DNA of 45,215 nt from a virus, in the IMG/VR virus record IMGVR_UViG_3300029533_000005, positions 1 to 45,215 of that record. One strand, 5' to 3'. Position 1 is the first letter of the stretch, and each line of letters begins with the position of its first letter. The translations under genes and the position numbers were made by a program. A model generated the notes under the pieces. It did not search any database, had not been told where the DNA came from, and was given only the letters and a program-made list of their open reading frames with translations. Below, piece after piece: positions 5,040 through 38,800 of this stretch.

Positions 5040-5163
5040 TTCCGATCATGGCAGAACAGATCGTAAAAGCAAACTGTCCATATCTAAAGATTGGCGAGAG
5101 GGTTCCGAACCTTGTGATTGATGATAGCGATGTACAGCTTAAGTTTGCGTAGGTAATGATTAT

Positions 5164-7590: not shown

Positions 7591-7932
7591 CTTGAAGAAG
7601 CTATTAAACATGCGAGAGAATTGGCAGAGAGAAACTATAAAAATGTGAGAACTTATCCCCAAGAACTATGGAAGCCAGGTGAATTGGAAAACTGTCAAAA
7701 ATGCGCCGAAGAACACGATCAGTTAGCAAAGTGGTTGCAAGAATTAAAAGAATGTCGAGAGTCTGAAAACGATAATATCTTTTATCAGATCAGAAAAAAG
7801 TTAAAGGAAGATAAAATTCCAGAAAATATGGAACCGTTTATAAAAGAACACCATTACAGATCGACAGAAAATGAAACAGTGCTGGAAGTTAAGATTGGAT
7901 GGAGGGAAAGGTCAACTACCCATTACCTTTAG
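7576..7932 (+). CDS. hypothetical protein (MERLT N-terminus)
   Basis: A 118-aa ORF that shares its first 5 codons and its 5' junction with the gene at 8782. Confidence 0.55.
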   Translation: MERLTLEEAIKHARELAERNYKNVRTYPQELWKPGELENCQKCAEEHDQLAKWLQELKECRESENDNIFYQIRKKLKEDKIPENMEPFIKEHHYRSTENETVLEVKIGWRERSTTHYL

Positions 7933-7949
7933 GTGGTGGGTTTCCGCCT

Positions 7950-8156
7950 ATGGCAAACGAAAGGATTTTATTTATGAAAAACGGAATCATATGCAAAGAA
8001 GACGGCGATGCACTGCTTGAAATCTATCGGGCAATCAATGTTTATGACGGATCGCTGAACCGCAATCTGACTATGGAAGAAATGGTTTTGATATTTGCGC
8101 TTGGACACGCTATAAAAGAGAATTTTGCGGAAGGAAGGGAAGTAGATGGCAATTAA
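7950..8156 (+). CDS. hypothetical protein
   Basis: Start moved to ATG 7950 (MANERILFMKNG...). The longer track start would overlap the upstream gene. Confidence 0.45.
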   Translation: MANERILFMKNGIICKEDGDALLEIYRAINVYDGSLNRNLTMEEMVLIFALGHAIKENFAEGREVDGN

Positions 8157-8781
8157 ACCGATTTTATTCAACACCGAAATGGTGAGAGCAATTCTGGATG
8201 GAAGAAAGACTTGCACACGGCGAGTGGTAAAAACCAGACGAAAAGACGCTTGTGGGTTCTACGTTACGAAAAGACCGGACGGCTCATTTACCGGAATATA
8301 TGAATATGACGAAGATGAGAGAATGTTCGAAAATCAGTTGATTCCACCGTACAAGTCGGGAGATATCCTGTATGTCCGGGAAACATGGTGTGATCTTCCA
8401 GTCAATAAAGCCGGTCATATGCGTGGTCATTCCATCTATTATTACAAGGCAGATGGAGATCTGCGACCTGAAGGTTGGCGTGGTAACTGGCGCCCATCAA
8501 TTCATATGCCGAAAGAAGCCGCTAGGATATGGCTTAAGGTTACGGATGTAAGAGTTGAGCGATTGAATGAGATTACGGATAAAGGCGCCGAGCGAGAAGG
8601 AGCACAGCCAGATTATCCATTTGATTACGATGTGGATAAGTGGCCGAATTTGGAGCATTTCAAAAAAATTTGGAACAGCACCATCAAGAAATCTGAACTT
8701 GACCGCTACGGCTGGCAGGCTAATCCGTGGGTGTGGGTGATTAGCTTTGAGCGATGTGAGAAACCGGAGGTGGTGAAGTAG
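8146..8781 (+). CDS. hypothetical protein, possibly ASCH/PUA-like
   Basis: The N-terminal PILFNTEMVRAILDGRKTCTRRV is a motif I associate with ASCH-like phage proteins. This is not verified. Confidence 0.4.
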   Translation: MAIKPILFNTEMVRAILDGRKTCTRRVVKTRRKDACGFYVTKRPDGSFTGIYEYDEDERMFENQLIPPYKSGDILYVRETWCDLPVNKAGHMRGHSIYYYKADGDLRPEGWRGNWRPSIHMPKEAARIWLKVTDVRVERLNEITDKGAEREGAQPDYPFDYDVDKWPNLEHFKKIWNSTIKKSELDRYGWQANPWVWVISFERCEKPEVVK

Positions 8782-12819: not shown

Positions 12820-13629
12820 ATGATTAGTAATTGTGGACATGATGAAAGAGGAAAATACACAGGCGGACAGGCAGGAGACCAGACGGGCCAGGAGTGGTCT
12901 GTGATTCCGTGGTACAATCGCCCCTGGAATGTGGTATTGAGACATCGTGACCGGAAGATCAGTGAAAAGATTGCTGAGCTTGCGAAAAAAGCGGCAGAAA
13001 ATAATTATATAGGCTATGACCAGGGAGATCGGTATACTTTCTGGGAGAATCTGAAAAAAGTCAATTATGACCCGGCTAAGATCACTAAAAACTGCGAGGC
13101 AGATTGCAGCTCAGGTGTAGCGGCTATCGTTAAGGCAGTTGGTTATCTGCTAAACAGTGAGAGCTTAAAAAACGTAAGTATATACTGCTATACTGGTAAC
13201 CTTAAGGCAGCTCTAAAAAAAGCTGGTTTTGAAGTGCTAACCGATCAGAAGTATCTCACTAGTGACAATCACTTGCTTCCAGGCGATGTCTTACTATATG
13301 AGGGCCATCACACGGCAATCAACCTGGACACTGGCAAAGATATCATATGGCTTGAAGATCACTGGAGTAAGACAGAAAATGGATATACATACATCACTGC
13401 CACAGGTATGGTAAAGAATCGATGGGCGTTGATTAATCACCATCGGTATCTTTTCGACATAAACGGATACATGGTGACGGGCTGGCACAGATGGGACGGC
13501 AAGAACACAGACCCAGCAGACGGAACGGGAGACTGGTATTTTCTGGATAACACCAAAGAAGGACCGTTAGAGGGCGCCTGCTGGCACAGCCGTGATAATG
13601 GATCACAGGAAATTTGGTATGTAAAGTAG
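12820..13629 (+). CDS. cell-wall hydrolase (NlpC/P60-like Cys-His amidohydrolase) with C-terminal cell-wall-binding repeats; candidate endolysin or virion lysin
   Basis: The N-terminus MISNCGHDERGKYTGGQAGDQTGQEW, the Cys in CEADCSSG and the His in YEGHHTAINL fit the hydrolase. The C-terminus carries GW/WY repeats (GYMVTGWHRWDGK...GDWYFLDN). Confidence 0.6.
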   Translation: MISNCGHDERGKYTGGQAGDQTGQEWSVIPWYNRPWNVVLRHRDRKISEKIAELAKKAAENNYIGYDQGDRYTFWENLKKVNYDPAKITKNCEADCSSGVAAIVKAVGYLLNSESLKNVSIYCYTGNLKAALKKAGFEVLTDQKYLTSDNHLLPGDVLLYEGHHTAINLDTGKDIIWLEDHWSKTENGYTYITATGMVKNRWALINHHRYLFDINGYMVTGWHRWDGKNTDPADGTGDWYFLDNTKEGPLEGACWHSRDNGSQEIWYVK

Positions 13630-14850
13630 GTGCTTATGCTATCGCCGGATTATCTTAAAAGAGTATCGGAGGGGAGTGAAGAGATCGCTTCCCTCTTGCA
13701 CAATTACATCATAAAAAAGATCATAGGCCGTATGATGGCAAGATTAGGACGTGGTGACGAATATCTTTTTACCTCATCGGATAAATGGCAAATACAGATC
13801 TTGAAGGATTCTGGGGCGTTGCTGGAAGAGATCACCGCAGAATTGGCGAAATATACAAAGATGCAGGAAAAAGAGATAAAGGCGGCGATGGAAGAAGCCG
13901 GGATAAAAGCCATAGAAAAAGACGATGAGATATATACCGCCGCCGGACTATCACCGAAGCCACTGGAACAGTCTCCGCTACTGATCCGCATTTTGGAGCG
14001 TGATATGATCGCCACAATGAGTGAGTGGAACAATTACACAAGAACCACCGCAGAAGCCGCACAGGCTGTTTTTATCAATGAGTGCGACATGGCATATAGA
14101 AAGGTCATCACAGGGACTACAACGTACACACAGGCCGTCAGAGAAGCTGTGGAAGATGTGGCGAAGAATGGCGTGATTGTACAGTATCCGTCTGGTCATA
14201 AAGACACTATTGAGACGGCAACAGCAAGAGCCGTAAGGACAGGAGTATCACAGGCGGCGTGTGCGATTGCCTTGAAACGTATGGAAGAGATGGACTGGGA
14301 TACAATCCTTGTATCTGCTCATATTGGAGCCAGAACGGGAGACGGCGGCGAAAATCCTGGGAACCATCTGTGGTGGCAGGGGCAGTTTTATAGCCGTACT
14401 GGGAAAGATAAACGTTTTCCCCCACTTTCTGTGACTGGCTATGGCACAGGTGAGGGACTTAGCGGGTGGAACTGCCGCCATAGCATTGGTTCCGGTGATG
14501 GAGTGAACAATCCATACAAGGACATACAGACCGCCGATAATGTCAAAATGGAGAAGTTGGAGCAACGCCAAAGGGCATTGGAGCGTAGAATCCGCAAGAC
14601 CAAGAGGGAAGTTATGGCGATGCAGGAAGCGGTTGACCAGTGTACGGATAACGAAGCAAAGTTTGAATTGCAGCAGATTCTTGACCGTAAGTCATACACG
14701 TTACAATGCCAGAATAAAGCATACAACGACTTTTGCAAAGAAAATAACCTCCGTCCGTTAAGCGACAGGCTAAAAATAGCACACTGGAACAGTGAGCAGG
14801 CGGCAAAGGCCAGAGGAGCAGCGAGGCGATACGAGAAAGGCAAGCTATGA
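13630..14850 (+). CDS. minor head / head-morphogenesis protein (minor capsid protein 2 / SPP1 gp7-like)
   Basis: A 406-aa ORF downstream of the portal. The N-terminus is LSPDYLKRVSEGSEEIASLLHNYIIKKIIGRM. The alternative ATG at 13636 is equally possible. Confidence 0.6.
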   Translation: MLMLSPDYLKRVSEGSEEIASLLHNYIIKKIIGRMMARLGRGDEYLFTSSDKWQIQILKDSGALLEEITAELAKYTKMQEKEIKAAMEEAGIKAIEKDDEIYTAAGLSPKPLEQSPLLIRILERDMIATMSEWNNYTRTTAEAAQAVFINECDMAYRKVITGTTTYTQAVREAVEDVAKNGVIVQYPSGHKDTIETATARAVRTGVSQAACAIALKRMEEMDWDTILVSAHIGARTGDGGENPGNHLWWQGQFYSRTGKDKRFPPLSVTGYGTGEGLSGWNCRHSIGSGDGVNNPYKDIQTADNVKMEKLEQRQRALERRIRKTKREVMAMQEAVDQCTDNEAKFELQQILDRKSYTLQCQNKAYNDFCKENNLRPLSDRLKIAHWNSEQAAKARGAARRYEKGKL

Positions 14851-14878: not shown

Positions 14879-15211
14879 ATGACAGGAATAGAATTTTTAA
14901 ATGAGTGTATTGTGATTTGCAAAAATGTGTCTGTGATCGGCGCTGCTGCTGGTGTCCTCTACTCACTTTATGCCAGAGCAAAGAAACCGCAAGAGGATAT
15001 GGAAAAGCGAATCGAAGCCATAGAAACTGACATCAAAGACATCAAAACAAAGTTAGATAACGATTATTCCAAGATTAACCAGAATCGGGATGATACCCAG
15101 CTTTTAATGAGGAGTATGTTTAACCTTATCGAAAATAAAATCACTGGAAATAACGTTGAGGGTTTAAAAAAAACACGGGACGAACTAATTCAAGCATTGA
15201 CGGAAAAATAA
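14879..15211 (+). CDS. membrane-anchored coiled-coil protein
   Basis: N-terminal TM helix (VICKNVSVIGAAAGVLYSLYA) followed by a heptad-rich region. A GGAGG RBS is present. Confidence 0.5.
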   Translation: MTGIEFLNECIVICKNVSVIGAAAGVLYSLYARAKKPQEDMEKRIEAIETDIKDIKTKLDNDYSKINQNRDDTQLLMRSMFNLIENKITGNNVEGLKKTRDELIQALTEK

Positions 15212-15222
15212 GGAGAATTTTC

Positions 15223-15423
15223 TTGAAAGTCTATGAATTCACTGTGCCGGAACTGAACCGTTTTCGGCAGCTTGCCAACTTTACACCAGATGAGAGGGTA
15301 CTTTTTGAGTATCGGAGCCAGGGAGTACCGTTGGAGGAGTGCGCCGAAAGAATGAATGTCAGCGTGTCAACAGTAAAGCGGATTAGCATTAGAGTAAATA
15401 GAAAAATAATCAAGGTATGTTAA
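15223..15423 (+). CDS. small sigma-70 region-4 / LuxR-type HTH protein (66 aa)
   Basis: TTG start 6 nt after AAGGAGA. LTPDERVLFEYRSQGVPLEECAERMNVSVSTVKRISIRVNRKI matches the region-4 pattern. Confidence 0.6.
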   Translation: MKVYEFTVPELNRFRQLANFTPDERVLFEYRSQGVPLEECAERMNVSVSTVKRISIRVNRKIIKVC

Positions 15424-15452
15424 AAAGAGTCTCGAAATGGAGACTCTTTTTT
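15422..15452. terminator. bidirectional intrinsic terminator
   Basis: The 8-bp stem agagtctc/gagactct has a 6-nt loop. It is flanked by an A-run upstream and a T-run downstream, and lies between convergent genes. Confidence 0.8.
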
Positions 15453-15626
15453 CTATTCAATGAATTTTTCCACAGCTGCCAGAATGAAAGAATTTACAGA
15501 AGGGTAACCCATTCTTCTGGCCTTTTCCTCTATTTGCTCTTTCTCCCCTTTTGGTGTTCGGAGCGTAATCCTATCATACACTTTTGCATTGTAGCGGTCT
15601 TTGACCGCACTAGATGTTTTTGACAT
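15453..15626 (-). CDS. ribbon-helix-helix (CopG/Arc-type) DNA-binding protein
   Basis: Start set at the ATG after GGAGGAACT. Beta strand ITLRTPKG, then helices EKEQIEEKARRMG and SVNSFILAAVEKFIE. Confidence 0.6.
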   Translation of the reverse strand: MSKTSSAVKDRYNAKVYDRITLRTPKGEKEQIEEKARRMGYPSVNSFILAAVEKFIE

Positions 15627-15650
15627 AGTTCCTCCATACATTTGACATTT

Positions 15651-16382
15651 TTATAATTCTGTATTTTTATCAATAAGTTTTTTCCATTCTGGCTTCGCAT
15701 CTACAAAAGCCTGGATTTCTGGATCATATAGCCGTTTTTCTGCTTCTTTTCTTGCTGCCGCAGCATCTTCAAAACTGTCAAAAGTGCCAAGATGAATCTG
15801 GTTTCTTTTTAAAGTTATGTATGCCCTCCACTTTTCTCCACTTCTGGACACTCCATTGCATCCAGAAGAGTTATTTTTGTTTGTCAAGCCATTTTTCCGC
15901 TTGGCGAGTGAAGACGCTTTTGTCCCGTTTAGGAATATTTCTTCCCTATAAAATTTAACGTTTTTAGCTGCAATGGAACGAGAACAATCTATACATTGCA
16001 CCGGGGAAGAATTCGATATGAGCCGATGCAACGGGTATTTTTTTATAGATCCGCATTTTTCACATTTGCACTCTACAAAAAACATTTTGTGCTTACCATA
16101 TTTTTCCGTTCCACACAAGCTAACAACTTCCAGTGCCCCGAAATGTTGACCAAGATACTTTCCATATTCCTGGCATTTAATCTTGGCACGTGCAATCTTT
16201 TTACAAGACGTGCACCCATTTTTTACCATTCCGGTTATGGTTCCACCGGCTCCTCTAAATGCGTGCCCACATTTAACGCAGTGGTACACATAATTTTTAT
16301 ACGACCGCCCATCTCCGGCGGCGTGTTCTTCGTCAATCTGGAGAGATCCGTAGATCCCTCCCACTTCGTATTTGTTCATCAC
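15651..16382 (-). CDS. AP2-domain DNA-binding protein with two N-terminal zinc-ribbon modules
   Basis: The C-terminal GVSRSGEKWRAYITLKRNQIHLGTFDSFEDAAAARKEAEKRLY is an AP2/ERF-type domain. Upstream lie CVKCGH...CTSCKK and CEKCGS...CIDCS. Confidence 0.7.
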   Translation of the reverse strand: MMNKYEVGGIYGSLQIDEEHAAGDGRSYKNYVYHCVKCGHAFRGAGGTITGMVKNGCTSCKKIARAKIKCQEYGKYLGQHFGALEVVSLCGTEKYGKHKMFFVECKCEKCGSIKKYPLHRLISNSSPVQCIDCSRSIAAKNVKFYREEIFLNGTKASSLAKRKNGLTNKNNSSGCNGVSRSGEKWRAYITLKRNQIHLGTFDSFEDAAAARKEAEKRLYDPEIQAFVDAKPEWKKLIDKNTEL

Positions 16383-16558
16383 ATGATCTCCACGCCTAAT
16401 TTTTCAGCTGCCTGGAATGCAACCTGTTCGAAAGTTTCTCCGTCAGCGGCCTCCCACTCAGCTTCCATGTCTGCCAACTCGCAAAGTTCTCTGAGCTGGT
16501 CAAGATCCCATTCCTGACTACTTCTGATTTCTTCTGCCAATTCCTGCTCTCTTGTCAT
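16379..16558 (-). CDS. small highly acidic protein (59 aa)
   Basis: Translated by eye as MTREQELAEEIRSSQEWDLDQLRELCELADMEAEWEAADGETFEQVAFQAAEKLGVEIM. It is the first gene of the minus-strand operon and its stop overlaps the AP2 start. Confidence 0.45.
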   Translation of the reverse strand: MTREQELAEEIRSSQEWDLDQLRELCELADMEAEWEAADGETFEQVAFQAAEKLGVEIM

Positions 16559-16639: not shown

Positions 16640-16746
16640 GAGGAAAATGAAAACTTTTTTGATACTTTTATGAACTGTTTCCGGCTCTTTTTTTATGCAA
16701 AAATATAGACATAGAAGTTATTGAATTAGTCATTGGAGGGGTGTGT

Positions 16747-17190
16747 ATGTATCCGTATGGAATGCCAGATCCGCAAAATTACGCCAATGAACAGGCGATG
16801 TTGCAGAACCGTATAAATCAGTTTGAACAACAGAGAAGTCAGCAAATGGGAATGTACTCTAATCAGATGCGGCAACCACAGGGGCCAGTGCAAAACGTGA
16901 ATTGGATTCAAGTAGCAGGAGTTGAAGGGGCAAAAAACCAGATCGTCCAGCCTGGACAGACCACATGGATGATGGATAATAATAGCCCCATGTTTTATGT
17001 CAAATCTGTGGACGGAATGGGAAGCGCAACACTCAAGGCGTTCCAGTTCCAGGAGATCCCGGTAAATGCTTTGACGGCTCCACAGGTGCAGCAGGCACCA
17101 GCAGGTGATTATGTGACAAGAGAAGAATTCAACAATCTGCTTGCAAGACTTGGCGAGAAACCAAGCGAAAAGGAGGAGAGCCATGAGTAA
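16747..17190 (+). CDS. orphan Q/M/N-rich protein (cassette gene 1)
   Basis: ATG lies 7 nt after GGAGG. The N-terminus is low-complexity (QNRINQFEQQRSQQMGMYSNQMRQPQ), followed by a compact domain NWIQVAGVEGAKNQIV...FYVKSVDG. Confidence 0.55.
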   Translation: MYPYGMPDPQNYANEQAMLQNRINQFEQQRSQQMGMYSNQMRQPQGPVQNVNWIQVAGVEGAKNQIVQPGQTTWMMDNNSPMFYVKSVDGMGSATLKAFQFQEIPVNALTAPQVQQAPAGDYVTREEFNNLLARLGEKPSEKEESHE

Positions 17191-17446
17191 TCCATTAATG
17201 AGTATGATCGGCGGCATGGGCGGTGGAAACAACCCTATGGCGGCTATGATGCAGGCTATGCAGGTAGTAAATCAAATTAGGCAATCTGGTAACCCACAGG
17301 CGGCGCTAAACGCTATGGCTAAACAGAATCCGAACATCAAAAATGCAATGGATATGTGCCAGGGGAAGAACCCAGAGCAGGTCTTTAACCAGATGTGCAA
17401 GCAAAACGGCATGGATCTCGGACAATTCGCTGGGATGATGAAATGA
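17183..17446 (+). CDS. orphan Met-rich NP-repeat protein, STI1/ubiquilin-like repeat pattern (cassette gene 2)
   Basis: ATG after AAGGAGGAG. Repeated NPxxxxxxM units are present (NNPMAAMMQAM, GNPQAALNAM, QNPNIKNAM, KNPEQVFNQM). Confidence 0.5.
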   Translation: MSNPLMSMIGGMGGGNNPMAAMMQAMQVVNQIRQSGNPQAALNAMAKQNPNIKNAMDMCQGKNPEQVFNQMCKQNGMDLGQFAGMMK

Positions 17447-17536
17447 TGATTTTGTTGACTTCAGCGAAATCAATAATTCGCTATCATTGCCGGAGTGCAC
17501 ACGGCTTGATAAATATATGATAAGGAGAAAATCAAC

Positions 17537-18226
17537 ATGACAGATGGATTAGGACTTACGGCTGCTGATGTAGCAGCAGTAACCAGAAACGACACATGCA
17601 ACGATATGTGGGGCGGTGGCGGCTGGTGGATTTGGATCATTCTGATTGCGTTCCTCTTCCCGATGATGGGCGGATGGAACCGCGGCGGTTTTGAAAACGG
17701 CGTGCAGGACAATTTCATTTCGGATGAGTTTGTGAAGCGCGACATCTTCAACACAAATCAGAACGTATCCAACACAGCATGTCAGACCCAGAGAGATGTA
17801 CTTGAGAGCAGATATACAACACAGCTCGGAATGCAGCAGTTAGGTGCTCAGTCTCAGCAGTGTTGCTGCGAAACACAGAAAGAGATCTTGCAGAACCGGT
17901 ATGATGCGGCATTAATGGCGCAGAACATGCAGGCACAGCTTGCGCAGTGTTGCTGTGACATCAAGGAAACTGTCCTTGCAGACGGACAGGCAACACGCCA
18001 GCTCATGCAGGAGAACACCATCCAGGGACTTCGCGACAAGATTGCGGACCGTGACAGAGACCTCCAGACAGCGTATTGGCAGATCTCCCAGGTCGACCAG
18101 ACCAAAAACATCGTTAATGCGTTAAGACCGACACCTACACCGGCTTATCTCACCTGTTCCCCTTACTTTGCTTACAACATGACCGGGTTCGGCGGTTGCT
18201 GCGGTAACGGTGGAAACGTACTTTGA
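17537..18226 (+). CDS. orphan membrane protein with Gly/Trp-rich TM segment, coiled coil and two QCCC motifs (cassette gene 3)
   Basis: Segments WGGGGWWIWIILIAFLFPMMGGW, QQCCCETQKE and AQCCCDIKE are present, with a C-terminal GFGGCCGNGGN. Confidence 0.55.
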   Translation: MTDGLGLTAADVAAVTRNDTCNDMWGGGGWWIWIILIAFLFPMMGGWNRGGFENGVQDNFISDEFVKRDIFNTNQNVSNTACQTQRDVLESRYTTQLGMQQLGAQSQQCCCETQKEILQNRYDAALMAQNMQAQLAQCCCDIKETVLADGQATRQLMQENTIQGLRDKIADRDRDLQTAYWQISQVDQTKNIVNALRPTPTPAYLTCSPYFAYNMTGFGGCCGNGGNVL

Positions 18227-18432
18227 TCAGCCGGGAACTGTCCTACCTGGATATGCTAAACCTGTTCGGCGTATTCTTGCAGGTGATGAATTACGAAAAT
18301 GATTTGTCACAGGCGAGTAACGCAGACATAGCGAAGCATCTCCAGGAGCAGGACAGAAAGTACCTGGATAAGATCATTGAGAATCAAAACAGAATAATCA
18401 GCATGTTGGAAGAATCCATAGCTACGAAGTAG
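18223..18432 (+). CDS. orphan small protein (cassette gene 4)
   Basis: A 69-aa ORF. The TTG start overlaps the upstream stop. The alternative ATG at 18253 is possible. Confidence 0.4.
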   Translation: MISRELSYLDMLNLFGVFLQVMNYENDLSQASNADIAKHLQEQDRKYLDKIIENQNRIISMLEESIATK

Positions 18433-18443
18433 TCTTGCAAATC

Positions 18444-18475
18444 ATAGGGGTAGGTGTGGAGCTTGCCCCTATTTT
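18444..18475 (+). terminator. possible intrinsic terminator or attenuator inside the cassette
   Basis: Stem atagggg/cccctat (7 bp) with a 15-nt loop, followed by TTTT. Confidence 0.4.
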
Positions 18476-18493
18476 CGTGAAAGGAGAAGTATT

Positions 18494-18922
18494 ATGCTTA
18501 ATGTTGTTAATGTAGCTGCTCAGACGGTGGCAGCCAATCAGAATGTTACTTTTGGTAGCACTCGCGTAAAGTCTCGCAGATGCGGATGTCAGAGTGGATG
18601 GCTCAATCACATCGAGGGAAGTGGGCTGTTTACAATCACAAACAGGAGCAATCAGCCGATGGCGGTAGAACTCCAGTTTAACGCAAATGTGACGGCTTCT
18701 GCGGCTGGTGCAACAGCACTGGTGCTTAAGCTGAACGGCGAAAACATCGGTGGAACAGAGATGGATTATACGGTTGTTACAGCAGATGTATATCAGAATG
18801 TAAGTGCAGACACGTTGATCCCGGTACCGGCCGGAACATCTCTTACCGTATCTGTGGGTAATATTTCCGCCGGAGCAGTCCTTGTCAAGGACGCAAACCT
18901 CATCATTAAAAAGCTTTCGTAG
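18494..18922 (+). CDS. orphan beta-rich protein resembling a BclA-C-terminal / C1q-TNF-like jelly roll (cassette gene 5)
   Basis: The pattern V.F......G......G.F.I....Y.V.......A....L.LNGE.I.G.......NVS....IPV.AG..L.V......V..ANL.I.KL was recognised by eye. This is not verified. Confidence 0.45.
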   Translation: MLNVVNVAAQTVAANQNVTFGSTRVKSRRCGCQSGWLNHIEGSGLFTITNRSNQPMAVELQFNANVTASAAGATALVLKLNGENIGGTEMDYTVVTADVYQNVSADTLIPVPAGTSLTVSVGNISAGAVLVKDANLIIKKLS

Positions 18923-18934
18923 GAGGTGATCGGT

Positions 18935-19525
18935 ATGATTACCTTTAAGAGCAAAAAGGACGTTGCCAGTGTGGAAGCAATCTTTTCCGAGATCAACGCC
19001 CGTATGATTGCCGCTCTGATGCTTCATGACCAGATGACCGACTATTTTGATTTTCTTGGAATGAAAGGGTATAAGAGGCTCCACGAATACCAGTATTTTG
19101 ACGAGTCCTTAGAGCGAAAGAAGCTAAACCAGTATTACATTAATCACCATAATCGGTTGATTGAGGACACATATACCGGACAGGTGAAAATAATCCCGGA
19201 AACCTGGCTTTCCGCAAACAGAATCAGTGTAGGAAAGTCCACGAAGCAAAAAGGAATTGAAGATGGATTTAATCAGTACAGAGCATGGGAAGCAGAGACC
19301 AAGTCTCTATACGAACATTATGTTTTGAAACTGCGAGAACTGGGAGCCGTATCTGATGCATTGGTTGTGGAAAAACTGGTGGAAAATGTGGATGGAGAGT
19401 TAAAGAAGCTGGATCGCATCATGATTGATCTGATCTCTTCCGGCTATGACATGGTTTACATCACAGAGAAACAGCCAGAGATCCACGATAAGTATAAGGC
19501 AAAGCTATCTGAGATTTTTAAATAG
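18935..19525 (+). CDS. orphan helical protein, possibly a ferritin-like four-helix bundle (cassette gene 6)
   Basis: ATG lies 9 nt after GGAGG. MIAALMLHDQMTDYFDFLGMKGYKRLHEYQYFDESLERKKL resembles ferritin helix A/B spacing. The similarity is weak. Confidence 0.4.
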   Translation: MITFKSKKDVASVEAIFSEINARMIAALMLHDQMTDYFDFLGMKGYKRLHEYQYFDESLERKKLNQYYINHHNRLIEDTYTGQVKIIPETWLSANRISVGKSTKQKGIEDGFNQYRAWEAETKSLYEHYVLKLRELGAVSDALVVEKLVENVDGELKKLDRIMIDLISSGYDMVYITEKQPEIHDKYKAKLSEIFK

Positions 19526-19536
19526 GTGGTGAGACA

Positions 19537-19959
19537 ATGAGAGACATGATTAAGATTTTGGAAAAGCAGTTAGAGGTAGAAGAAAGAAGCGCCAAAGAAA
19601 AACTGACAGGTGCCAACTTGGATACTATGTTTAAACTGACCACCACGATCTGCAACATGAAAAAGATGTGTGGAGAGTGGGAAAGTGACACAGTGGCAGA
19701 GGCGGCGGAAGATCTGGTAAAAAAATACAGTAATGGACGGTATGATCACAATATTGATTCACTGTATGACGCTTACCTTGCAGCCAAAGAAGCGTATCGC
19801 ACCAATGGTGACCAGGCTCACAGGGACAAACTGATGGAAACTGTAGGGCGTTTGATGGTAGAGGTTTACGATATGCTTTCATCTATGGTTGTTGACAGCG
19901 ATTTCCAGGAGGAACGCCGGGAAATCCAGAGACAGATCCAGAAACTGGCAGAAACATAG
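19537..19959 (+). CDS. orphan helical protein (cassette gene 7)
   Basis: A 140-aa co-directional ORF. Confidence 0.5.
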   Translation: MRDMIKILEKQLEVEERSAKEKLTGANLDTMFKLTTTICNMKKMCGEWESDTVAEAAEDLVKKYSNGRYDHNIDSLYDAYLAAKEAYRTNGDQAHRDKLMETVGRLMVEVYDMLSSMVVDSDFQEERREIQRQIQKLAET

Positions 19960-19998
19960 CGTTGAGGTGGGGACAAAATATAGTAGCGTTTTTGGTAA
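19960..19998 (+). promoter_or_regulatory. bipartite conserved motif CGTTGAGGTGGGGACAA-N16-TGGTAA, copy 2
   Basis: The 17-mer, the spacing and the hexamer are identical to 9590..9628. The motif starts right after the stop of the cassette and lies upstream of the tRNA/scaffold/capsid block. Confidence 0.5.
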
Positions 19999-20220
19999 AC
20001 TAAAATTGCGGAAACGATATATCTGTTGTATATTTTCTTACCTCCTTTCTAGCACACGTCCTTAAGAGAAATCAGCAGCAATGCTGAGAGGTTGAAAAGC
20101 GGATGCAATTTCCGGCGTGTGCAAGCTACTTGCTTTTCTCCTACAAGTAGAAATCATACCTGCTAAGTGCGCTGAAAACTGCCTTTATGGTGTGACAATC
20201 TAAGCGCGGCAGTCCCCCAG

Positions 20221-20291
20221 TGGAACATACGGTTAATGGCAAACCGACAGGGTATCACCCTGGATTCCAGGTTCGATTCCTGGTGCTCCAC
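20221..20291 (+). tRNA. tRNA-like gene with a non-canonical anticodon arm (5-nt loop UAUCA); possibly a pseudo or decoy tRNA
   Basis: Folded by hand. The acceptor is tggaaca/tgctcca (one A.C mismatch). The D arm is cggt-taatggcaa-accg. The third stem is caggg/ccctg with loop tatca. The T arm is ccagg-ttcgatt-cctgg. Confidence 0.45.
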
Positions 20292-20353
20292 TTCTATCCG
20301 CTTAAAGTTAAGCTATCTGTTTACAGATGGTCTATGGCTTGGGTGGATTTTTT

Positions 20354-20426
20354 TGGAACATAGTTCAGCGGCTAGAGCATCTGGCTCATAACCAGAGTGT
20401 CGGCGGTTCGAATCCGTCTGTTCCAA
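20354..20426 (+). tRNA. tRNA with CAT anticodon (elongator Met, or Ile2 if lysidine-modified)
   Basis: Folded by hand. The acceptor is tggaaca/tgttcca. The D arm is gttc-agcggcta-gagc. The anticodon arm is tctgg-ctCATaa-ccaga. The T arm is ggcgg-ttcgaat-ccgtc. No CCA is encoded. Confidence 0.8.
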
Positions 20427-20504
20427 CTACCCCGCCGGAGGTTTACCCGGCTTAATCCATTACCGCTGACGGGCGGTTTTAATAATCACGTATAGGAGGA
20501 TGTT

Positions 20505-21152
20505 ATGCAGAATTACGAACAAATTATGCAGGAACTGGAAATTGAAATTCCAGAGGACAAAAAAGACGCTTTGAAGAAAAAAATGCTAGAGAATTACCGC
20601 ACTGTTGCCGATTACAACAAGCAGGTAACGAAAACAGAGGAGTACAAGCAGTCCCTGGATAATGTGCAGACGAAGCTTGATGGTTTTGAAGGTGTGGATG
20701 TCAATGATCTGAAAAACCAGATCCAGACACTGACAACTCAGCTTAACGATGAAAAGAAAGCTCGTGCGGCTGATGCCAGAAAGACAGAAGTTGAAAAGAT
20801 GGTAAATGACTTCCTTTCTTCCACTGATGATAAGGGAGAAAAGGCATATAATTTTCTCAACGATATCACAGCCGATTACTACCGAGGAGAACTGACAAAA
20901 GCACTTGATTCTGATTCTGCAAAAGGAAAGTCTATCAAAGACATTTTTAACACTATGATTACCGACAAAGACGGGAATCAGAAAGAAGGAATCTTTGTTG
21001 ATCGAGAGCAGCAGCAGGCTAGACAGAACTCGGCACGTTTTACAACACACGCTGGGAAAAACAACGGAGCTGGAGGAAAGAAACCGACCATGACTGAACT
21101 GATGCGGATGAAAAACGAAGATCCTAGTTTAGACATTTCACAGTATATGTAA
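20505..21152 (+). CDS. scaffolding protein (GP20-like)
   Basis: A charged, coiled-coil-rich 215-aa protein immediately upstream of the major capsid gene. TAGGAGG RBS. Confidence 0.7.
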   Translation: MQNYEQIMQELEIEIPEDKKDALKKKMLENYRTVADYNKQVTKTEEYKQSLDNVQTKLDGFEGVDVNDLKNQIQTLTTQLNDEKKARAADARKTEVEKMVNDFLSSTDDKGEKAYNFLNDITADYYRGELTKALDSDSAKGKSIKDIFNTMITDKDGNQKEGIFVDREQQQARQNSARFTTHAGKNNGAGGKKPTMTELMRMKNEDPSLDISQYM

Positions 21153-22864: not shown

Positions 22865-23204
22865 AGTGAATGTTTTAGGCTCTGAATGGAGTGTGGTGTT
22901 CGGAACTGAGAAAGAATATCAAAACTTATCAGAGATGGACGGATACGCCGATTTCTCAACCCATCAGATCGTGATTGACACTATGGAAAAAGCTGACGGT
23001 CAGATTGGATTTAAGGGAGATATGGCCGAGTATAAAAAGCAGGTGATCCGTCACGAGATCATCCACGCTTTCTTATATGAGTCTGGCCTGGAAGCGTGTT
23101 CAACCACTTCTGATAACTGGGCGCTTAACGAAGAAATGGTTGATTGGTTCGCTATCCAGTCTCCAAAAATTTTCAAAGTATTCAACGAACTTAAATTGAT
23201 GTGA
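22830..23204 (+). CDS. small HExxH metallopeptidase-like protein
   Basis: VIRHEIIHAFLYESGL contains HExxH followed by E. The protein is 124 aa. Confidence 0.5.
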   Translation: MKGYQFYMQDFKVNVLGSEWSVVFGTEKEYQNLSEMDGYADFSTHQIVIDTMEKADGQIGFKGDMAEYKKQVIRHEIIHAFLYESGLEACSTTSDNWALNEEMVDWFAIQSPKIFKVFNELKLM

Positions 23205-23208
23205 ATAC

Positions 23209-23229
23209 CAGTATTGTATGCAGGAGTGT
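23209..23229 (+). repeat. 21-bp direct repeat (left) bracketing the methyltransferase gene
   Basis: cagtattgtatgcaggagtgt is identical to 24781..24801. It contains the SD (AGGAG) used by the gene that follows. Confidence 0.85.
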
Positions 23230-23233
23230 AAAA

Positions 23234-24778
23234 ATGGAATTAAAAGAACTCACTAGTAAAACAATAGAACTGTTGAACATTGAAAATCCAGAACAGATTC
23301 CAGACTCTTTGATGGAAATTGTGCTGAATGGAAAAACAGAATTTTTTGACAGATTTTGCAATCTGGTTGAGGACTTATCCATTGACTGGTTGCAAAAGAT
23401 TTTCCAATATTATCTTGCTGATAGAAAAGTAAAGATGCAGGATTACACGCCTGTTTCATTAGCAAGATTTGCCGGAAAACTGGTGCAAACAGAAAACGAA
23501 CGCACTGTATATGATTTATGCGCCGGAAGTGGTGCATTGACTATTCAAAAATGGAATCTGAATAATGAATTGAAATTCGTATGTTATGAGTACGATAAAA
23601 CGGTTATTCCTATTTTGCTTTTCAATCTGGCAGTAAGAAATATTGATGCAGTTGTTGTAAATGGCGATGCATTGCAGGATGAAGTTTTCACAACTTATCT
23701 TGTAAAGAAAGGTGAAAAATATTCTTCTGTAAAAAAGACAGAAAATTTTAAACTGGAAAAGACAGATAGTTGTATTTCAAATCCACCATACAATATGAAG
23801 TGGAAGATACCGCCGTTTGCACAGCTGCAACCTCGCTTTAACGACTGTGAGTTGCCGCCAGAAAGCAATGCAAATTATGCTTTTATTTTGACCGCATTAG
23901 ATAATTGCAAGGAAAAAGTTTCAATGATTCTTCCGTGTGGGATATTAACTTCGAATCTAAAAAATGAAATAGAAATAAGAAAGTATCTTATTGAGAAGAA
24001 TCTGATAGAATCAGTTATTTTGTGTCCAGATAAAATGTTTGAAGCTACTTCGATTGCAACTTGTCTTTTGACACTGAACAAGAAAAAAGAGACAACACAT
24101 ATTGCATTTTTAGATATGCGTAAAACTTGCGATGTAGAGCAAAGAGAACAGAATGGACAGTTTGGCGGGGCAAGCCACGAAAACAGAACATACAAAAAAA
24201 CAGTTAATGTTTTTACTAACGAACAGATGGAAAACGCCATTGATGCTATCGTTAATCAGAAAAATGTCGCCGAATTTTCAAAAAGCGTGCCTTTTCAAAC
24301 TGTAGCAGAAAACAAATATACTCTTCTCCCAACACGATACCTTGAATTTAAAGAAGAGGATTTTACACACAGAGATTACGGAGAAATCATTGACGACTTA
24401 AACAGAGTTATCAATGAGAAAAATGGTCTCAAACTGACAATGAATGAAACACTTGCAAAATCAATCGGATTGTATGACATATTCCAGATGTTCAAGCAGT
24501 CGGAAGAAACAGCGGATTCCATGAATCAAATGCTTGCTTTTACCGGAAAGAAAATCGAAAAAGAAAACTTTATTTCCATGACGAAGAAAGCAGGAGAACT
24601 GAAATTTGAAAATGGAAGCAAGAACAACATATCAACTATATTGCTTTCAATTTTACAGATGTGGAAACAACACATAATGTATCTGAACAATGAAGAAAAC
24701 AGATATTTGATAGAATTGAGAGACGCGCTTTTACCAGATTTAATGTCTGGAAAAATTGATTTACGAGGTGACAAATAA
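23234..24778 (+). CDS. N6-adenine DNA methyltransferase (HsdM / type IIG-like) with an HsdS-like C-terminal helix; orphan (no nuclease partner seen)
   Basis: Motif I is DLCAGSGALT and motif IV is SNPPYNMKW. The C-terminus LIELRDALLPDLMSGKIDL resembles the conserved end of specificity subunits. Start set to the ATG after the repeat-borne SD. Confidence 0.8.
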   Translation: MELKELTSKTIELLNIENPEQIPDSLMEIVLNGKTEFFDRFCNLVEDLSIDWLQKIFQYYLADRKVKMQDYTPVSLARFAGKLVQTENERTVYDLCAGSGALTIQKWNLNNELKFVCYEYDKTVIPILLFNLAVRNIDAVVVNGDALQDEVFTTYLVKKGEKYSSVKKTENFKLEKTDSCISNPPYNMKWKIPPFAQLQPRFNDCELPPESNANYAFILTALDNCKEKVSMILPCGILTSNLKNEIEIRKYLIEKNLIESVILCPDKMFEATSIATCLLTLNKKKETTHIAFLDMRKTCDVEQREQNGQFGGASHENRTYKKTVNVFTNEQMENAIDAIVNQKNVAEFSKSVPFQTVAENKYTLLPTRYLEFKEEDFTHRDYGEIIDDLNRVINEKNGLKLTMNETLAKSIGLYDIFQMFKQSEETADSMNQMLAFTGKKIEKENFISMTKKAGELKFENGSKNNISTILLSILQMWKQHIMYLNNEENRYLIELRDALLPDLMSGKIDLRGDK

Positions 24779-24805: not shown

Positions 24806-25099
24806 ATGAAGTTTAGAAAAAAGCCTGTTATCATTGAAGCATTTAGGTATGATGGTGATCTGAAAGACCGGAACGGCTTGTTTTACGTTCCATTTTGGGC
24901 GCAAGAAGCTTATAAGAAAGGCATTATGTATTACGGCGCAGAAGCTTGTGATTTACCTCCGTGTGAGCTGTATATCGAAACATTAGAGGGAACACATCAT
25001 GTTTCTGTTGGAGACTATGTTATCCAGGGTGTAAACGGAGAGCTTTATCCGTGCAAGCCAAATATTTTTGAAAAAACTTATGAGAAGGTGAAAGAGTAA
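24806..25099 (+). CDS. hypothetical small beta-rich protein
   Basis: MKFRKKPVIIEAFRYDGD...GDYVIQGVNGELYPCKPNIFEKTYE. The ATG lies after the repeat-borne SD. Confidence 0.55.
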   Translation: MKFRKKPVIIEAFRYDGDLKDRNGLFYVPFWAQEAYKKGIMYYGAEACDLPPCELYIETLEGTHHVSVGDYVIQGVNGELYPCKPNIFEKTYEKVKE

Positions 25100-25425
25100 T
25101 GGAAGCATTATTCGCAAATATGACTTTGATTCTGGCAGTGATCGGGATTCTGGCGTTCTGTGTGTCAGTGATTACCCAGGTATTTAAAGGCGTAGGAGTT
25201 CTCTCCACGATCCCCACAGATGCCCTTGTATTCGTCCTTTCCATCGGAATCACCGTGGCTGCTTTTGTGGCATACATGCAGTATATCCACATGGAAATCC
25301 TGTGGTACATGATTTTGGCGGCGATCATGGCAGGTTTTATCGTAGCGTTTGTGGCTATGTATGGCTGGGAGAAGCTGACGGAATTGTGGAAAAGAATGAG
25401 TAAAACGGATCAGCTCAAGAAATGA
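25099..25425 (+). CDS. holin-like membrane protein (three TM helices, charged C-terminus)
   Basis: 108 aa. TM1 is LILAVIGILAFCVSVITQVF, TM2 is LVFVLSIGITVAAFVAYM and TM3 is ILAAIMAGFIVAFVAMYGW. The tail is KRMSKTDQLKK. Confidence 0.45.
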   Translation: MEALFANMTLILAVIGILAFCVSVITQVFKGVGVLSTIPTDALVFVLSIGITVAAFVAYMQYIHMEILWYMILAAIMAGFIVAFVAMYGWEKLTELWKRMSKTDQLKK

Positions 25426-36717: not shown

Positions 36718-36879
36718 ATCCGAAAAAGGTTGATTTTTTGATCGCTAGTATTAAAATAAAAAACGAGTGGACATCTACCCTCGCAAAGTACCTGCCCACT
36801 CAATCTCTCAATGAGATCGGGTCTATTATACCACGATCTCTATTTGAGCACAACAAAAATAAAAAGGAGATTGTGCGGT

Positions 36880-37875
36880 ATGTCTAACGAAATCAGAAAT
36901 CAAATTATCATGGAACTTCAAAAAGAATTCACGGCTGACCAGCTGAAAATCATTGATTTAGCAGTAGCAAAGGCAATGAGGGGATACAGAATAGAAAAAG
37001 AAGAAACGCTTCCGGCTCCAACAGTGTATGAGTTGCCATATGACATACGAGAATTCATAGCCAGAAAGAAGCTGAAAGGCTGTTCTGACGGCACAATAGA
37101 ACAGTATGGTAATTTACTCAAAGATTTTACATTGTGGCTTAAAAAGGATTTGAGAAGCGTACAGGACATAGATATTTTGGCTTATCTGGACTGGAGAGCG
37201 AAGCTTGGTGCAGGTATGCGCACGTTGGACGGCAAGCGGCTTATCTTATCATCTTTTTACACGTATATGCATGATACAGGTAAAATGGCATATAATCCAT
37301 GTAAAGCCGTTGACCCGGTTAAATACAAAGCCAAAATAAGGCAGCCTTTAACAGATATGGAGTTAGAACAGGTTCGTTCTTCTTGCAAGACGCTACGTGA
37401 GAAAGCGCTATTTGAGACTCTGTATGCTACGGGATGCCGTGTCAGCGAGATTGTTGGAATTGATTACGCAGAGATAGACAAGAAATCTAGGTGTGTGGTG
37501 ATCACCGGAAAAGGAGACCAGGAACGTCTGGTATTTTTGAACGCTAAAGCCATGTTTGCAATCGAAAAATATATTGAAAGCAGAAATGATGATACCCCGG
37601 CTCTTTTCGTGTCTTCCAGGGCTCCATATGGCCGACTAGGGAAAGAAGCCATTGAAAGAGAGATAAAGGCCATCGGAAAACGTTCTGGAATCGGTAGGTC
37701 AGTATTCCCGCATCTTATGCGCCATACCTTTGCAACGGATATGTTGGAGCATGGTGCATCACTGAATGAGGTTTCCGATCTTTTAGGTCATAAAAAGCTG
37801 GATACCACAAAGATTTATGCAAAGACCAGCGTGAGATCCCTTGAAATTGCATATAAACGTCATCATGCAGCATAA
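36880..37875 (+). CDS. tyrosine recombinase (XerC/D- or Rci-like), candidate shufflon invertase
   Basis: Catalytic pattern ATGCRVSE (R), GKGDQER (K), HLMRHTFAT (HxxR) and LLGHKKLDTTKIYAKT (H...Y). The gene sits between site copies 1 and 2. Start reset to ATG 36880 after AAAGGAG. Confidence 0.8.
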   Translation: MSNEIRNQIIMELQKEFTADQLKIIDLAVAKAMRGYRIEKEETLPAPTVYELPYDIREFIARKKLKGCSDGTIEQYGNLLKDFTLWLKKDLRSVQDIDILAYLDWRAKLGAGMRTLDGKRLILSSFYTYMHDTGKMAYNPCKAVDPVKYKAKIRQPLTDMELEQVRSSCKTLREKALFETLYATGCRVSEIVGIDYAEIDKKSRCVVITGKGDQERLVFLNAKAMFAIEKYIESRNDDTPALFVSSRAPYGRLGKEAIEREIKAIGKRSGIGRSVFPHLMRHTFATDMLEHGASLNEVSDLLGHKKLDTTKIYAKTSVRSLEIAYKRHHAA

Positions 37876-38776: not shown

Positions 38777-38800
38777 GCCTAGTAAATACTAGGCTTTTTT
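38777..38800 (+). terminator. hairpin plus T-run following the tRNA fragment (overlaps the integrase stop codon)
   Basis: gcctagta/tactaggc followed by tttttt. Confidence 0.55.

Follow-up and report, generated by a model that had tools for sequence, protein, structure and literature searches.

A widespread seven-gene phage module built around a membrane protein, possibly accessory to lysis or egress

Why would a siphovirus carry, in the midst of its head genes, seven genes none of which looks like a virion-assembly gene? The question is raised by IMG/VR record IMGVR_UViG_3300029533_000005 (positions 1 to 45,215), the whole stretch of 45,215 nucleotides (nt) that we analyzed and refer to as the window. 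The window phage is a temperate SPP1-like siphovirus with terminase, portal, gp7-like minor head protein, scaffold, capsid and tail genes and integrases, and between its minor head and scaffold genes lie seven plus-strand open reading frames (ORFs), here named c1 to c7 (16747-19959) and collectively called the module. An earlier note, made from the sequence alone, had read these genes as an inserted orphan cassette, either a moron set acting on the host spore or cell surface or a novel capsid-decoration or ejection set. All seven ORFs were found at, or a few bases from, the coordinates given in that note, with GGAGG-type ribosome binding sites (RBSs) 5′ of c1, c2, c3, c5, c6 and c7. As the note had maintained, none of them resembled a virion-assembly protein in profile searches, no Pfam or PHROG family of decoration or scaffold proteins was matched, and profile and structure searches gave no assignment to ordinary head-decoration or scaffold families. 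We show below that the module is neither head-assembly machinery nor convincingly spore-related and that, as a system, it matches nothing described. Our preferred reading, to which we give a probability of about 0.3, is that its products form a membrane-anchored late-infection complex that is accessory to lysis or egress and is not the primary lysis system. The genes of the module and the two genes that bound the region are as follows.

13630-14850: SPP1-gp7-like minor head gene, 5′ flank of the region holding c1-c7
16747-17190, plus strand: c1, 147 amino acids (aa), Q/N/M-rich N-terminus and C-terminal helix
17183-17446, plus strand: c2, 87 aa, helical, start overlapping the end of c1
17537-18226, plus strand: c3, 229 aa, conserved N-tail, single transmembrane (TM) helix, long helices, Gly/Cys tail
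18223-18432, plus strand: c4, 69 aa, TTG start overlapping the c3 stop, hydrophobic N-terminal helix and coiled coil
18494-18922, plus strand: c5, 142 aa, predicted stand-alone C1q/TNF/BclA-C-type jelly roll with a conserved RRCxC loop
18935-19525, plus strand: c6, ferritin-like helical protein, alternative GTG start at 18926
19537-19959, plus strand: c7, 140 aa, helical, the least widely conserved position of the module
20505-21152: scaffold gene, 3′ flank of the region

Functional annotation of these genes was almost entirely lacking. Pfam, NCBIfam, PHROGs and PADLOC provided no functional family for c1-c7, the exception being a sub-threshold match of c5 to BclA_C, and the PADLOC anti-phage defence models gave no significant match for c1-c7 or for g110 and g66, two conserved upstream genes described below. 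The really annotated members of the c1-c7 protein clusters are all named hypothetical or uncharacterized; two isolated JGI names, surfactin synthase thioesterase for c2 and CheA for c7, look spurious and were discarded. Literature searches on BclA/C1q proteins in phages, on the proteomics of Clostridium perfringens phages, on the names of the cultured carriers, on the phiCP group and on XhlA-type lysis accessories brought up nothing on the c1-c7 proteins. The families of c1, c2, c3, c4 and c7 are without any annotation despite their very high prevalence in gut viromes.

In the lineage of the window phage, the module is an invariant backbone and not a dispensable moron. We surveyed 80 loci and then a further 80: each of c1-c7 was present in 78 to 80 of the first 80 loci and again, where the contig reaches, in nearly all of the second set, in which the few gaps include c4 in L171-L173. 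The whole block, in the same order from the minor head gene, g110 and g66 to the scaffold gene, was found in approximately 158 of 160 related gut siphovirus contigs, which bears out the expectation that the genes travel together. This order was kept although identity ranged over 37-97% for the portal and 27-96% for the scaffold, and the block was unchanged where the major capsid gene had been swapped (26% versus 80% identity, e.g., L028 versus L029). Moreover, the identity of c3, c4 and c5 (80-95%) exceeded that of the portal (67%) and of the minor head protein (55%); by implication, these core proteins are strongly selected for a specific interaction. In L081-L084, no c4 gene was called and tblastn found none; the only clear loss among the approximately 160 loci was L079 (IMGVR_UViG_3300007717_000023, ~7885-8228), which is without c2-c4 and has a c1 fragment joined to the C-terminal half of c5. 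The hosts are Lachnospiraceae and relatives, as judged from a prophage in the Coprococcus comes isolate MSK.16.63 and from metagenome-assembled genomes (MAGs) of Marvinbryantia and Waltera. Across IMG/VR, c5 relatives were found on 210 contigs and relatives of the c3 protein from a Bacilli MAG (L090) on 345, with overlap between the two sets.

Beyond this lineage, the module was recognizable in very distant phages and occurred in at least five different genomic contexts, so that the term inserted, as used in the earlier note, was right on an evolutionary scale. The gene orders were as follows (SSB, single-stranded DNA-binding protein).

Solobacterium-binned prophage (L092): tail fibre, TM/coiled-coil protein, TM protein, Sigma70_r4 protein, c1, c2, c3, c5, helical protein, r1t holin, amidase
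Bacilli MAG (L090): c1, c2, c3, c5-like, c4, with SSB and HNH genes nearby
Cultured C. perfringens phages HMD-PC1, CPD1 and PMQ04: antirepressor, c1-like, c2-like, c3 (E = 3e-34), Cys-rich beta protein, c4 (E = 6e-12), helical protein, c6 (E = 1e-7)
Flanks of the module in HMD-PC1, CPD1 and PMQ04, where it lies in the early region: Gam-like, recombinase, ThyX and SSB genes after the module; amidase-holin ~3.5 kb upstream
Dulem virus 36: module after the receptor-binding protein gene
Vescimonas fastidiosa prophage: XhlA-like, holin, amidase, unannotated sigma-r4-like ORF, terminator and promoter, c1, c2, c3, c5 (E = 2e-15), c7-like, host genes
crAss-like Suoliviridae, three subfamilies: holin, LysB/FtsL-like, ~200-aa protein, full-length c3 homologue, beta-rich protein

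In the Vescimonas prophage, which was also the single module match in a plasmid database, the module lies ~1 kb 3′ of the holin-amidase pair, and nothing but the g66-like ORF, the promoter and two small ORFs separates them. In two of the crAss-like subfamilies, c3 stands two genes after the holin and the LysB/FtsL-like gene, and in cr1_1 the c3 block follows a 'putative pholin', the two intervening genes being unannotated. The C. perfringens carriers had no annotated integrase in the regions seen and appear to be non-temperate; we take their group to be the one described as virulent. Two further observations concern these genomes. CPD1 has an extra gene for a 207-aa protein between c2 and c3 (L175, 5092-5715) with a weak likeness to a 243-aa Zn-ribbon protein of the window (BLASTP E = 0.006), which suggests a mobile element of the homing type targeting the module, and cr53_1 has in-frame stops under table 11, consistent with stop-codon recoding.

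The protein at the core of the module is c3. Its TM helix (approximately residues 26-44) is flanked by Gly and Trp, with WGGGGWWIWIILIAFLF at residue 25, and the helices 62-104 and 113-196 bear a 29-residue triple repeat starting at C82, C111 and C140. QCCC occurs at residues 108 and 137 and GCCGNGG at residue 220, among 11 Cys in total, and the DNA word CAGTGTTGCTG under the two QCCC motifs is present in exactly 2 copies, 87 nt apart (0.02 expected by chance). The Gly/Trp-rich TM helix, the two QCCC motifs on repeated DNA and the GCCGNGG tail reported before are all there; the proposed likeness to YjcZ-type sporulation peptides, on the other hand, did not hold up, as an NCBIfam scan at E <= 1 yielded one spurious CoA-hydrolase match only. 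Towards the C-terminus, an invariant PxPxPAY..C.PY motif precedes the Gly/Cys tail, and CCC109-111, C140, P200, P202, P209 and C221 are invariant in all lineages. The family comprises 1772 homologues and 1,386 clusters at 50% identity, 520 of them at E <= 1e-10; among the best 150 cluster representatives, lengths range from 83 to 313 aa and none has a large extra domain. Profile searches with c3 gave no PDB or Pfam match. The crAss-like homologue shares the GGWWWIWIILIFF helix, the CCC triplet, RPVPVPAYLTCNPY and a GCGCGC tail. In several crAss-like genomes (L178, L179 and L180), genes annotated as 'spike protein/glycoprotein' are full-length members of the c3 family, and this label probably reflects just the Trp-rich TM helix, coiled coil and Cys-rich composition of the homologue.

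The module appears to have transcription signals of its own, which consist of the following elements together with a linked regulator gene.

15223-15423, plus strand: g66, 66-aa sigma-70 region-4/LuxR-type helix-turn-helix protein, candidate activator of the module promoter
16653-16704, plus strand: putative module promoter with three direct repeats, a T-rich spacer and an extended −10
18444-18472, plus strand: intrinsic-terminator-like hairpin between c4 and c5, 12-bp stem, −19 kcal/mol, z = −3.25
19967-20123, plus strand: downstream boundary, a conserved GGTGACAA-type motif followed by RAGATH-21 RNA

The repeats of the putative promoter, ACTTTTT (16653), ACTTTTA (16664) and ACTGTTT (16674), are spaced by 10-11 nt and are followed by TGC (16696-16698) and AAAAAT (16699-16704). 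When the window was aligned with 11 loci, the element was kept in 11 of the 12 family sequences whatever the upstream cargo; the remaining stretch, L010, began too far downstream. The repeat pair occurs nowhere else in the window (0.14 expected), a closely similar element lies 5′ of the Vescimonas module, and the modules of L092 and HMD-PC1 have the same arrangement of triple repeat and −10 upstream, with other repeat sequences. In L092, HMD-PC1 and Vescimonas, terminator hairpins precede the module. The 16653-16704 element is a putative promoter, apparently activator dependent rather than constitutive. By inspection, its −10 is of the TGnNATAAT extended type and not sigma-E/K/F/G-like. Two other candidates were rejected: the ten-base word CAAAATATAG, considered as a motif common to two promoter regions, was not enriched in the window, nor was the CTTTnnnGAnCTGT core, whose minus-strand match at 5056 lacks the remainder of the element.

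A plausible activator is g66, since it is linked to the module. The gene matched TIGR02937 (E = 3.9e-6, aligned on region 4) and PHROG 1190 ('RNA polymerase sigma factor'), its L092 counterpart scored 35.9 bits against Sigma70_r4_2, above the gathering score, and it was kept in 79 of 80 relatives. Together with the unannotated g66-like ORF upstream of the Vescimonas module, a regulator of this type is linked to the module in three contexts, and g66 may activate the module promoter.

Within the module, the hairpin that was said to split the cassette into four and three genes has a counterpart at the corresponding position of all 11 orthologous loci examined (10-13 bp, stem sequences varying by locus), and in 8 of the 11 it is followed by a run of 5-7 T that is longer than that of the window. 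A simple terminator consensus scan had missed this hairpin. Its conservation suggests attenuation between c1-c4 and c5-c7, i.e., a putative internal attenuator. Directly 3′ of the c7 stop, an alignment of 11 loci confirmed the conserved GGTGACAA-type motif, which is probably the promoter of the next unit. From its own promoter element, the internal hairpin and the different motif after c7, the module is predicted to be a separately transcribed operon. It resembles morons and lysogenic-conversion cassettes in this apparent autonomy, with its own promoter and a terminator in front, and in its portability between genome positions, in one prophage at the end beyond the lysin. It differs from them in that its presence is not patchy within the lineage, in that it also occurs in phages that appear non-temperate, and in that its promoter is apparently activator dependent.

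Of the soluble products, c5 was the most informative. It scored 26.3 bits against Pfam BclA_C (PF18573; E = 7.4e-6, gathering score 38), its L092 orthologue reached 36.5 bits (E = 5e-9) against the same gathering score of 38, and some close homologues carry a precomputed PF18573 match. The AlphaFold2 (AF2) model, with a predicted local distance difference test score (pLDDT) of 76.8 and a predicted template modelling score (pTM) of 0.74, has 11 DSSP strand elements, compared with 10 strands in the family. In Foldseek, it matched the C-terminal domain of F-BclA from the F-ENA fibres of Bacillus thuringiensis (9h38; E = 2e-6, template modelling score 0.64) and ExsF (9h3d; score for the query, TMq, 0.73), followed by 7r1m, 8d02, C1q (1pk6), EDA and 4-1BBL; further matches included ExsFA/BxpB, the tips of cyanophage short tail fibres and many phage fibre proteins. 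We also obtained a weak profile match to a short tail fibre (E = 0.046). The closest viral models in BFVD are stand-alone proteins of 130-142 aa from gut phage MAGs labelled Sipho-, Podo- and Myoviridae, and the BFVD matches include proteins named 'BclA protein' and 'C1q domain'. The jelly roll proposed in the earlier note is well supported by these comparisons, and c5 is, according to its model, a new member of the known superfamily with the C1q/TNF/BclA-C fold. Like ExsFA/BxpB, it consists of a single free-standing domain (~140 aa) and lacks a signal peptide. Unlike BclA, it has no collagen-like stalk and no exosporium-targeting N-terminus: its 142 aa contain neither GXX collagen-like repeats nor a motif like LxGPTLPPIPP, which we take to be the N-terminal exosporium-targeting motif of BclA. 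Also unlike BclA and ExsF, it is phage encoded and not part of a sporulation regulon. At the c5 position, crAss-like phages have a beta-rich protein, and the C. perfringens phages and Dulem virus 36 have a Cys-rich beta protein; relatedness of the latter to c5 was considered and dropped, as hhalign gave no signal, and a PDB profile search with the Cys-rich protein of the C. perfringens phages gave no match.

The suggested ferritin likeness of c6 was borne out as well. A family profile with distant orthologues added (A9) matched more than 20 ferritins in the PDB, the best being 5ls9 at E = 5e-5, followed by 18 others at E <= 0.022, and the alignments were in register over helices A-B of these archaeal and bacterial ferritins; a narrower profile (A2) reached E = 0.013 only. 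For helices C-D the likeness was weaker (ferritin-like di-iron protein 7vp8, E = 0.055), and none of 12 c6 orthologues matched a Pfam ferritin family. By these profiles, c6 is a predicted new member of the known ferritin-like superfamily. The di-iron ligands of ferritins are a Glu in helix A, Glu-x-x-His in helix B, a Glu in helix C and Glu/Gln in helix D. In c6, E17 of ferritin helix A corresponds to an invariant R23, the helix B positions vary (E/D, E/H), and the ligand positions without variation are limited to E119 and E155. Because an invariant Arg replaces the first ferroxidase ligand, a canonical di-iron site in c6 is unlikely. The start of c6 is most likely ATG 18935 rather than GTG 18926, given the orthologues, the RBS spacing and an exact-sequence look-up. 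Counterparts were present in the C. perfringens phages and Dulem virus 36, c6 is missing from L092 and L090, and none was detected in the Vescimonas module.

The remaining products are small and compositionally peculiar. The N-terminus of c1 is Q/M/N-rich, as had been noted (13 Q, 7 N and 6 M in residues 1-55), and is followed in the family by a conserved beta-rich core of ~55 aa (NVNWIQVAG...FQFQEI). The protein belongs to PHROG 21718 (unknown function; E = 3e-19), its family holds 1064 proteins of which 0 are named, and its profile had no match in the PDB. The Met-rich character of c2 was likewise correct (17% Met, besides two conserved Cys), whereas the four NPxxxxxxM repeats claimed for it turned out to be five NP...M units, with exact NPx6M in only two. 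Its supposed kinship to STI1/ubiquilin domains is compositional only: a Pfam scan of c2 at E <= 1 yielded nothing but a weak lipase match, its HMD-PC1 counterpart gave no such profile match either, and c2 had no Pfam or PHROG family. Counterparts of c2 are recognizable in L090, L092, the C. perfringens phages, Dulem viruses 35 and 36 and Vescimonas. For c4, besides the HMD-PC1 counterpart, others were found in L090 and Dulem virus 36, and Dulem virus 35 has only a 29-codon ORF at this position. c7 belongs to PHROG 28802 (unknown function), and its Vescimonas counterpart is a 125-aa protein (E = 1e-4). Read by eye, the N-termini of c1, c2 and c5-c7 showed no signal peptide.

What could such a set do? 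According to our preferred reading, g66 would activate the triple-repeat, extended −10 promoter late in infection, and the hairpin after c4 would attenuate transcription so that c1-c4 are made in excess over c5-c7. c3 would enter the cytoplasmic membrane by its short Gly/Trp-flanked helix, its long coiled coil, probably oligomeric, ending in the Pro-rich/Cys/Gly tail, and Met-rich c2 and small hydrophobic c4 would serve as c3 handlers. A C1q/TNF-like trimer of c5, which lacks a signal peptide, could then dock on this complex as an ExsF-like adaptor cap, the ExsF/BxpB adaptor, closest in fold to c5, being one that binds Pro-rich N-terminal peptides. Ferritin-like c6 would also dock on the c3 complex. 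The assembly would act at the membrane on lysis or egress, through timing, localization or envelope disruption, beside a canonical holin and endolysin.

We favor lysis or egress because proximity to lysis genes and to an XhlA/FtsL-like TM-coiled-coil gene is the most consistent contextual signal, and because c3 has the architecture of a holin or i-spanin. The module lies immediately 5′ of the r1t holin and amidase in L092 and close to lysis genes in Vescimonas, in three crAss subfamilies and, loosely, in the C. perfringens phages; in the window, the connection runs via g269, the minor head gene and g110.

12820-13629, plus strand: g269, endolysin-like gene flanked by the portal and minor head genes, with a Pfam ELLD match of 255 bits and repeats of the choline-binding type
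14879-15211, plus strand: g110, 110 aa, N-terminal TM helix (residues 11-27) and coiled coil, conserved companion upstream of the module

g269 is the sole recognizable endolysin in the window and lies one gene upstream of g110; an endolysin-like gene occupies this position in only 3 of 80 relatives. g110 was kept in 78 of 80 relatives, and analogous TM-coiled-coil genes precede the module or the holin in L092, L090, the Vescimonas prophage and crAss-like phages. By analogy, the architecture of g110 may be called XhlA/FtsL/LysB-like. It and its counterparts are small TM-coiled-coil proteins like those of the PBSX-type xhlA-xhlB-xlyA cassette, and a counterpart stands directly before the holin-amidase pair in Vescimonas and before the module and the holin-amidase pair in L092. 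The likeness has its limits: it concerns g110 and not c1-c7, a Pfam scan with g110 returned coiled-coil noise only without a match to the XhlA family, and the TM helix is N-terminal in g110 and C-terminal in XhlA.

c3, in turn, is predicted to share the architecture of the class III holin gpT of T4 and of the i-spanins lambda Rz and P2 LysB, i.e., a short N-tail, one TM helix and a helical, Cys-bearing domain of ~180 aa, and like them it recurs near holins. It also has a short motif likeness to T4 T (PTPEINYMYSCPYF versus PTPTPAYLTCSPYF; T4 sequence verified). Homology to holin T, a candidate prompted by the shared PxP...Y..SCPYF motif, was rejected: hhalign of the family alignments gave a probability of 0.1, Pfam Phage_holin_T was not matched, and the likeness is limited to a motif of 8-10 residues. 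As for i-spanins, most hosts of c3 carriers are monoderm, where spanins have no role; the hosts of the window lineage, Lachnospiraceae and other Clostridia, do not provide the diderm envelope of a two-component spanin, and the window ORF list contains no small lipobox ORF within or beside c3 that could encode an o-spanin-like partner. Unlike in such systems, the window phage has separate canonical holin and endolysin candidates besides c3.

Several points weigh against an accessory role in lysis or egress. c3 has no sequence or profile homology to a holin, spanin or lysis regulator in Pfam or PHROG, and its AF2 model (30-sequence alignment, pLDDT 45) was unusable for a fold search. The module is not adjacent to a holin in the window family or in the C. 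perfringens phages. The surroundings of lysis cassettes gather unrelated accessory genes, and adjacency is therefore weak evidence. We know of no precedent for TNF-like and ferritin-like soluble proteins in lysis, and the topology of c3 and the protein-protein contacts in our scheme are proposals by analogy. Finally, a separate holin-like gene and endolysin are present elsewhere in the window phage and in its relative Dulem virus 35, and the module is therefore not needed for basic lysis. On the same grounds, the four-TM holin-like gene and ELLD endolysin of the window and the annotated holin and endolysin of Dulem virus 35, we discarded the module as a primary lysis system.

Among the alternatives, the one that fares best, although we consider it doubtful, is a virion-associated set of packaged internal or ejection proteins, or of minor decoration or fibre proteins, assembled in the cytoplasm. 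Such a role would explain the missing signal peptides and the TNF-like fold, which is typical of phage fibre tips and which in c5 matches cyanophage short-tail-fibre tips and phage fibre proteins, with the weak short-tail-fibre profile match in addition. The near-universal retention and the gene overlaps, which suggest translational coupling, point the same way, as does position: inside the morphogenesis cluster in the window, after tail-fibre or receptor-binding genes in L092 and Dulem virus 36, and, for the c3 block, before a 'virion structural protein' in crAss-like phages. Position says little, however, since the structural region of the window also holds the endolysin, a methylase and the holin-like gene, and elsewhere the module lies among antirepressor, Gam-like, recombinase and SSB genes (C. 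perfringens phages), near SSB and HNH genes (L090) or beyond the lysis cassette at the prophage end (Vescimonas). Furthermore, the block stayed unaltered when the capsid gene was exchanged for the 26%-identical type, it has its own activator-type promoter and upstream terminator, and c5 has stand-alone proteins as its nearest viral relatives in structure. The capsid exchange and the early or replication genes around the block in some phages speak in particular against the capsid-decoration or ejection set of the earlier note.

It is unlikely, in our estimate, that the module encodes a membrane-tethered organizer of the replication or assembly site or of host take-over, with Q/N/M-rich c1 and c2 as scaffolding or condensate partners. 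The N-terminal TM helix and long coiled coil of c3, the low-complexity Q/N/M-rich c1 and c2 and the very strong conservation of the core would suit this idea; in addition, the C. perfringens phages and L090 carry the module next to genes of replication and recombination, and the spread of the c3 family over several host phyla hints at a generic role inside the cell. p16.7 of phi29 combines an N-terminal TM helix, a coiled coil and a C-terminal functional end, and c3 can be likened to it by architecture alone. Against the idea, Pfam, PHROG and NCBIfam detected no DNA-binding or replication domain, and most lineages have the module among late genes or beside lysis genes.

Improbable is the lysogenic conversion favored in the earlier note, in which the products would assemble from the mother-cell cytoplasm on the host spore surface, as an exosporium- or coat-like layer, or would remodel the cell surface. 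In fold, c5 comes nearest to ExsFA, BxpB and the C-terminal domain of F-BclA, the c3 tail, rich in Cys, Gly and Tyr, reads like that of cross-linkable coat proteins, and the missing signal peptides fit assembly in the mother cell. Clostridia are the hosts of most carriers (Coprococcus, Marvinbryantia, Waltera, Vescimonas and C. perfringens), the module comes with a promoter and regulator of its own, and in Vescimonas it sits at the prophage end after the lysin, a classical site of conversion genes. Yet c3 has full-length homologues in crAss-like phages, whose Bacteroidota hosts form no spores, the module is found in a Solobacterium-binned prophage, and conversion would be pointless for the C. 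perfringens phages if these, without an annotated integrase in the regions seen, are non-temperate. The module is also invariant backbone and not variable cargo, its extended −10 is of vegetative and not sporulation-sigma type, no YjcZ, coat or exosporium family was matched, and c5 lacks the collagen stalk and the BclA targeting motif. These observations support neither the spore link nor the moron set.

Metal or redox handling, in which ferritin-like c6, the Cys-triplet proteins c3 and c5 and Met-rich c2 would sequester or deliver metal or buffer oxidants in strict anaerobes, could draw on the ferritin matches of c6, the invariant CCC triplets and further Cys of c3 and the 17% Met with MxxM-like spacing of c2, but is very improbable, given the invariant Arg at the first ferroxidase ligand and only two invariant acidic ligand positions, the missing c6 in L092 and L090 and none detected in Vescimonas, and the absence of a match to any known metal-binding family in Pfam and NCBIfam.

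The surroundings of the module in the window contain several further elements.

1-81 and 45135-45215: exact 81-nt terminal direct repeat, marking a complete genome (45,134 bp) that is circular or circularly permuted
15453-16558, minus strand: variable cargo slot outside the module, with genes for an Arc-like 62-aa protein (repressor type), a Zn-ribbon protein of 243 aa and a 59-aa protein
20051-20123, plus strand: RAGATH-21 RNA (Rfam RF03097, 81 bits, gathering score 70.3) between the c7 stop and tRNA-Asp, in a region conserved in relatives
20220-20292, plus strand: tRNA-Asp (ARAGORN) with the unusual anticodon ATC (A at position 34) and an Rfam tRNA score of only 36 bits
20354-20427, plus strand: tRNA-Met, Rfam tRNA score 64 bits
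23201-25425, plus strand: low-GC (0.36) island within the head-tail gene cluster, with an N6 DNA methylase gene at 23201-24778
25099-25425, plus strand: four-TM holin-like protein of 108 aa, in the low-GC island after the N6 DNA methylase gene

From the minor head gene to the scaffold gene, the order is g110, g66, the three-gene minus-strand insert, c1-c7, the RAGATH-21 RNA and the two tRNAs; the earlier note had passed over g110, g66 and the insert upstream (14879-16558) and the RNA and tRNAs downstream (20051-20427). The truly variable slot, a cargo hotspot, is the gap between g66 and c1, and it is here rather than in the module that moron-like variation occurs: the insert genes are present in only 1-5 of 80 relatives, and the length of the slot differs by 0.3-2 kb. 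The insert has its own TTGACA-17-TATACT promoter, and in L083 a Tad2-like (PF11195) anti-defence gene occupies the slot (8182-8727). The tRNA-Asp is possibly atypical or degenerate. In Dulem virus 35, a holin is annotated at a position similar to that of the four-TM gene, just 3′ of the head-tail connector gene. Between the tail-fibre genes and the first integrase of the window, we recognized no lysis cassette; the two tyrosine-recombinase (Phage_integrase) genes lie at 36811-37875 (plus strand) and 38789-40099 (minus strand).

Collectively, a BclA/ExsF-like fold in a phage of Clostridia is not by itself a sign of spore function. We tentatively propose that the module represents an unrecognized, widespread system, a membrane-anchored, cross-linked stalk and cap composed of the c3 coiled coil, a TNF-like trimer cap, a ferritin-like partner and Met-rich chaperones, which would constitute a new class of envelope or lysis-control machinery common to phages of Firmicutes and, via c3, to crAss-like phages. 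The cultured carriers HMD-PC1, CPD1, PMQ04 and 17DYC make the module directly testable, and if it is a functional system, it would be among the most prevalent wholly uncharacterized gene sets of human-gut phages.

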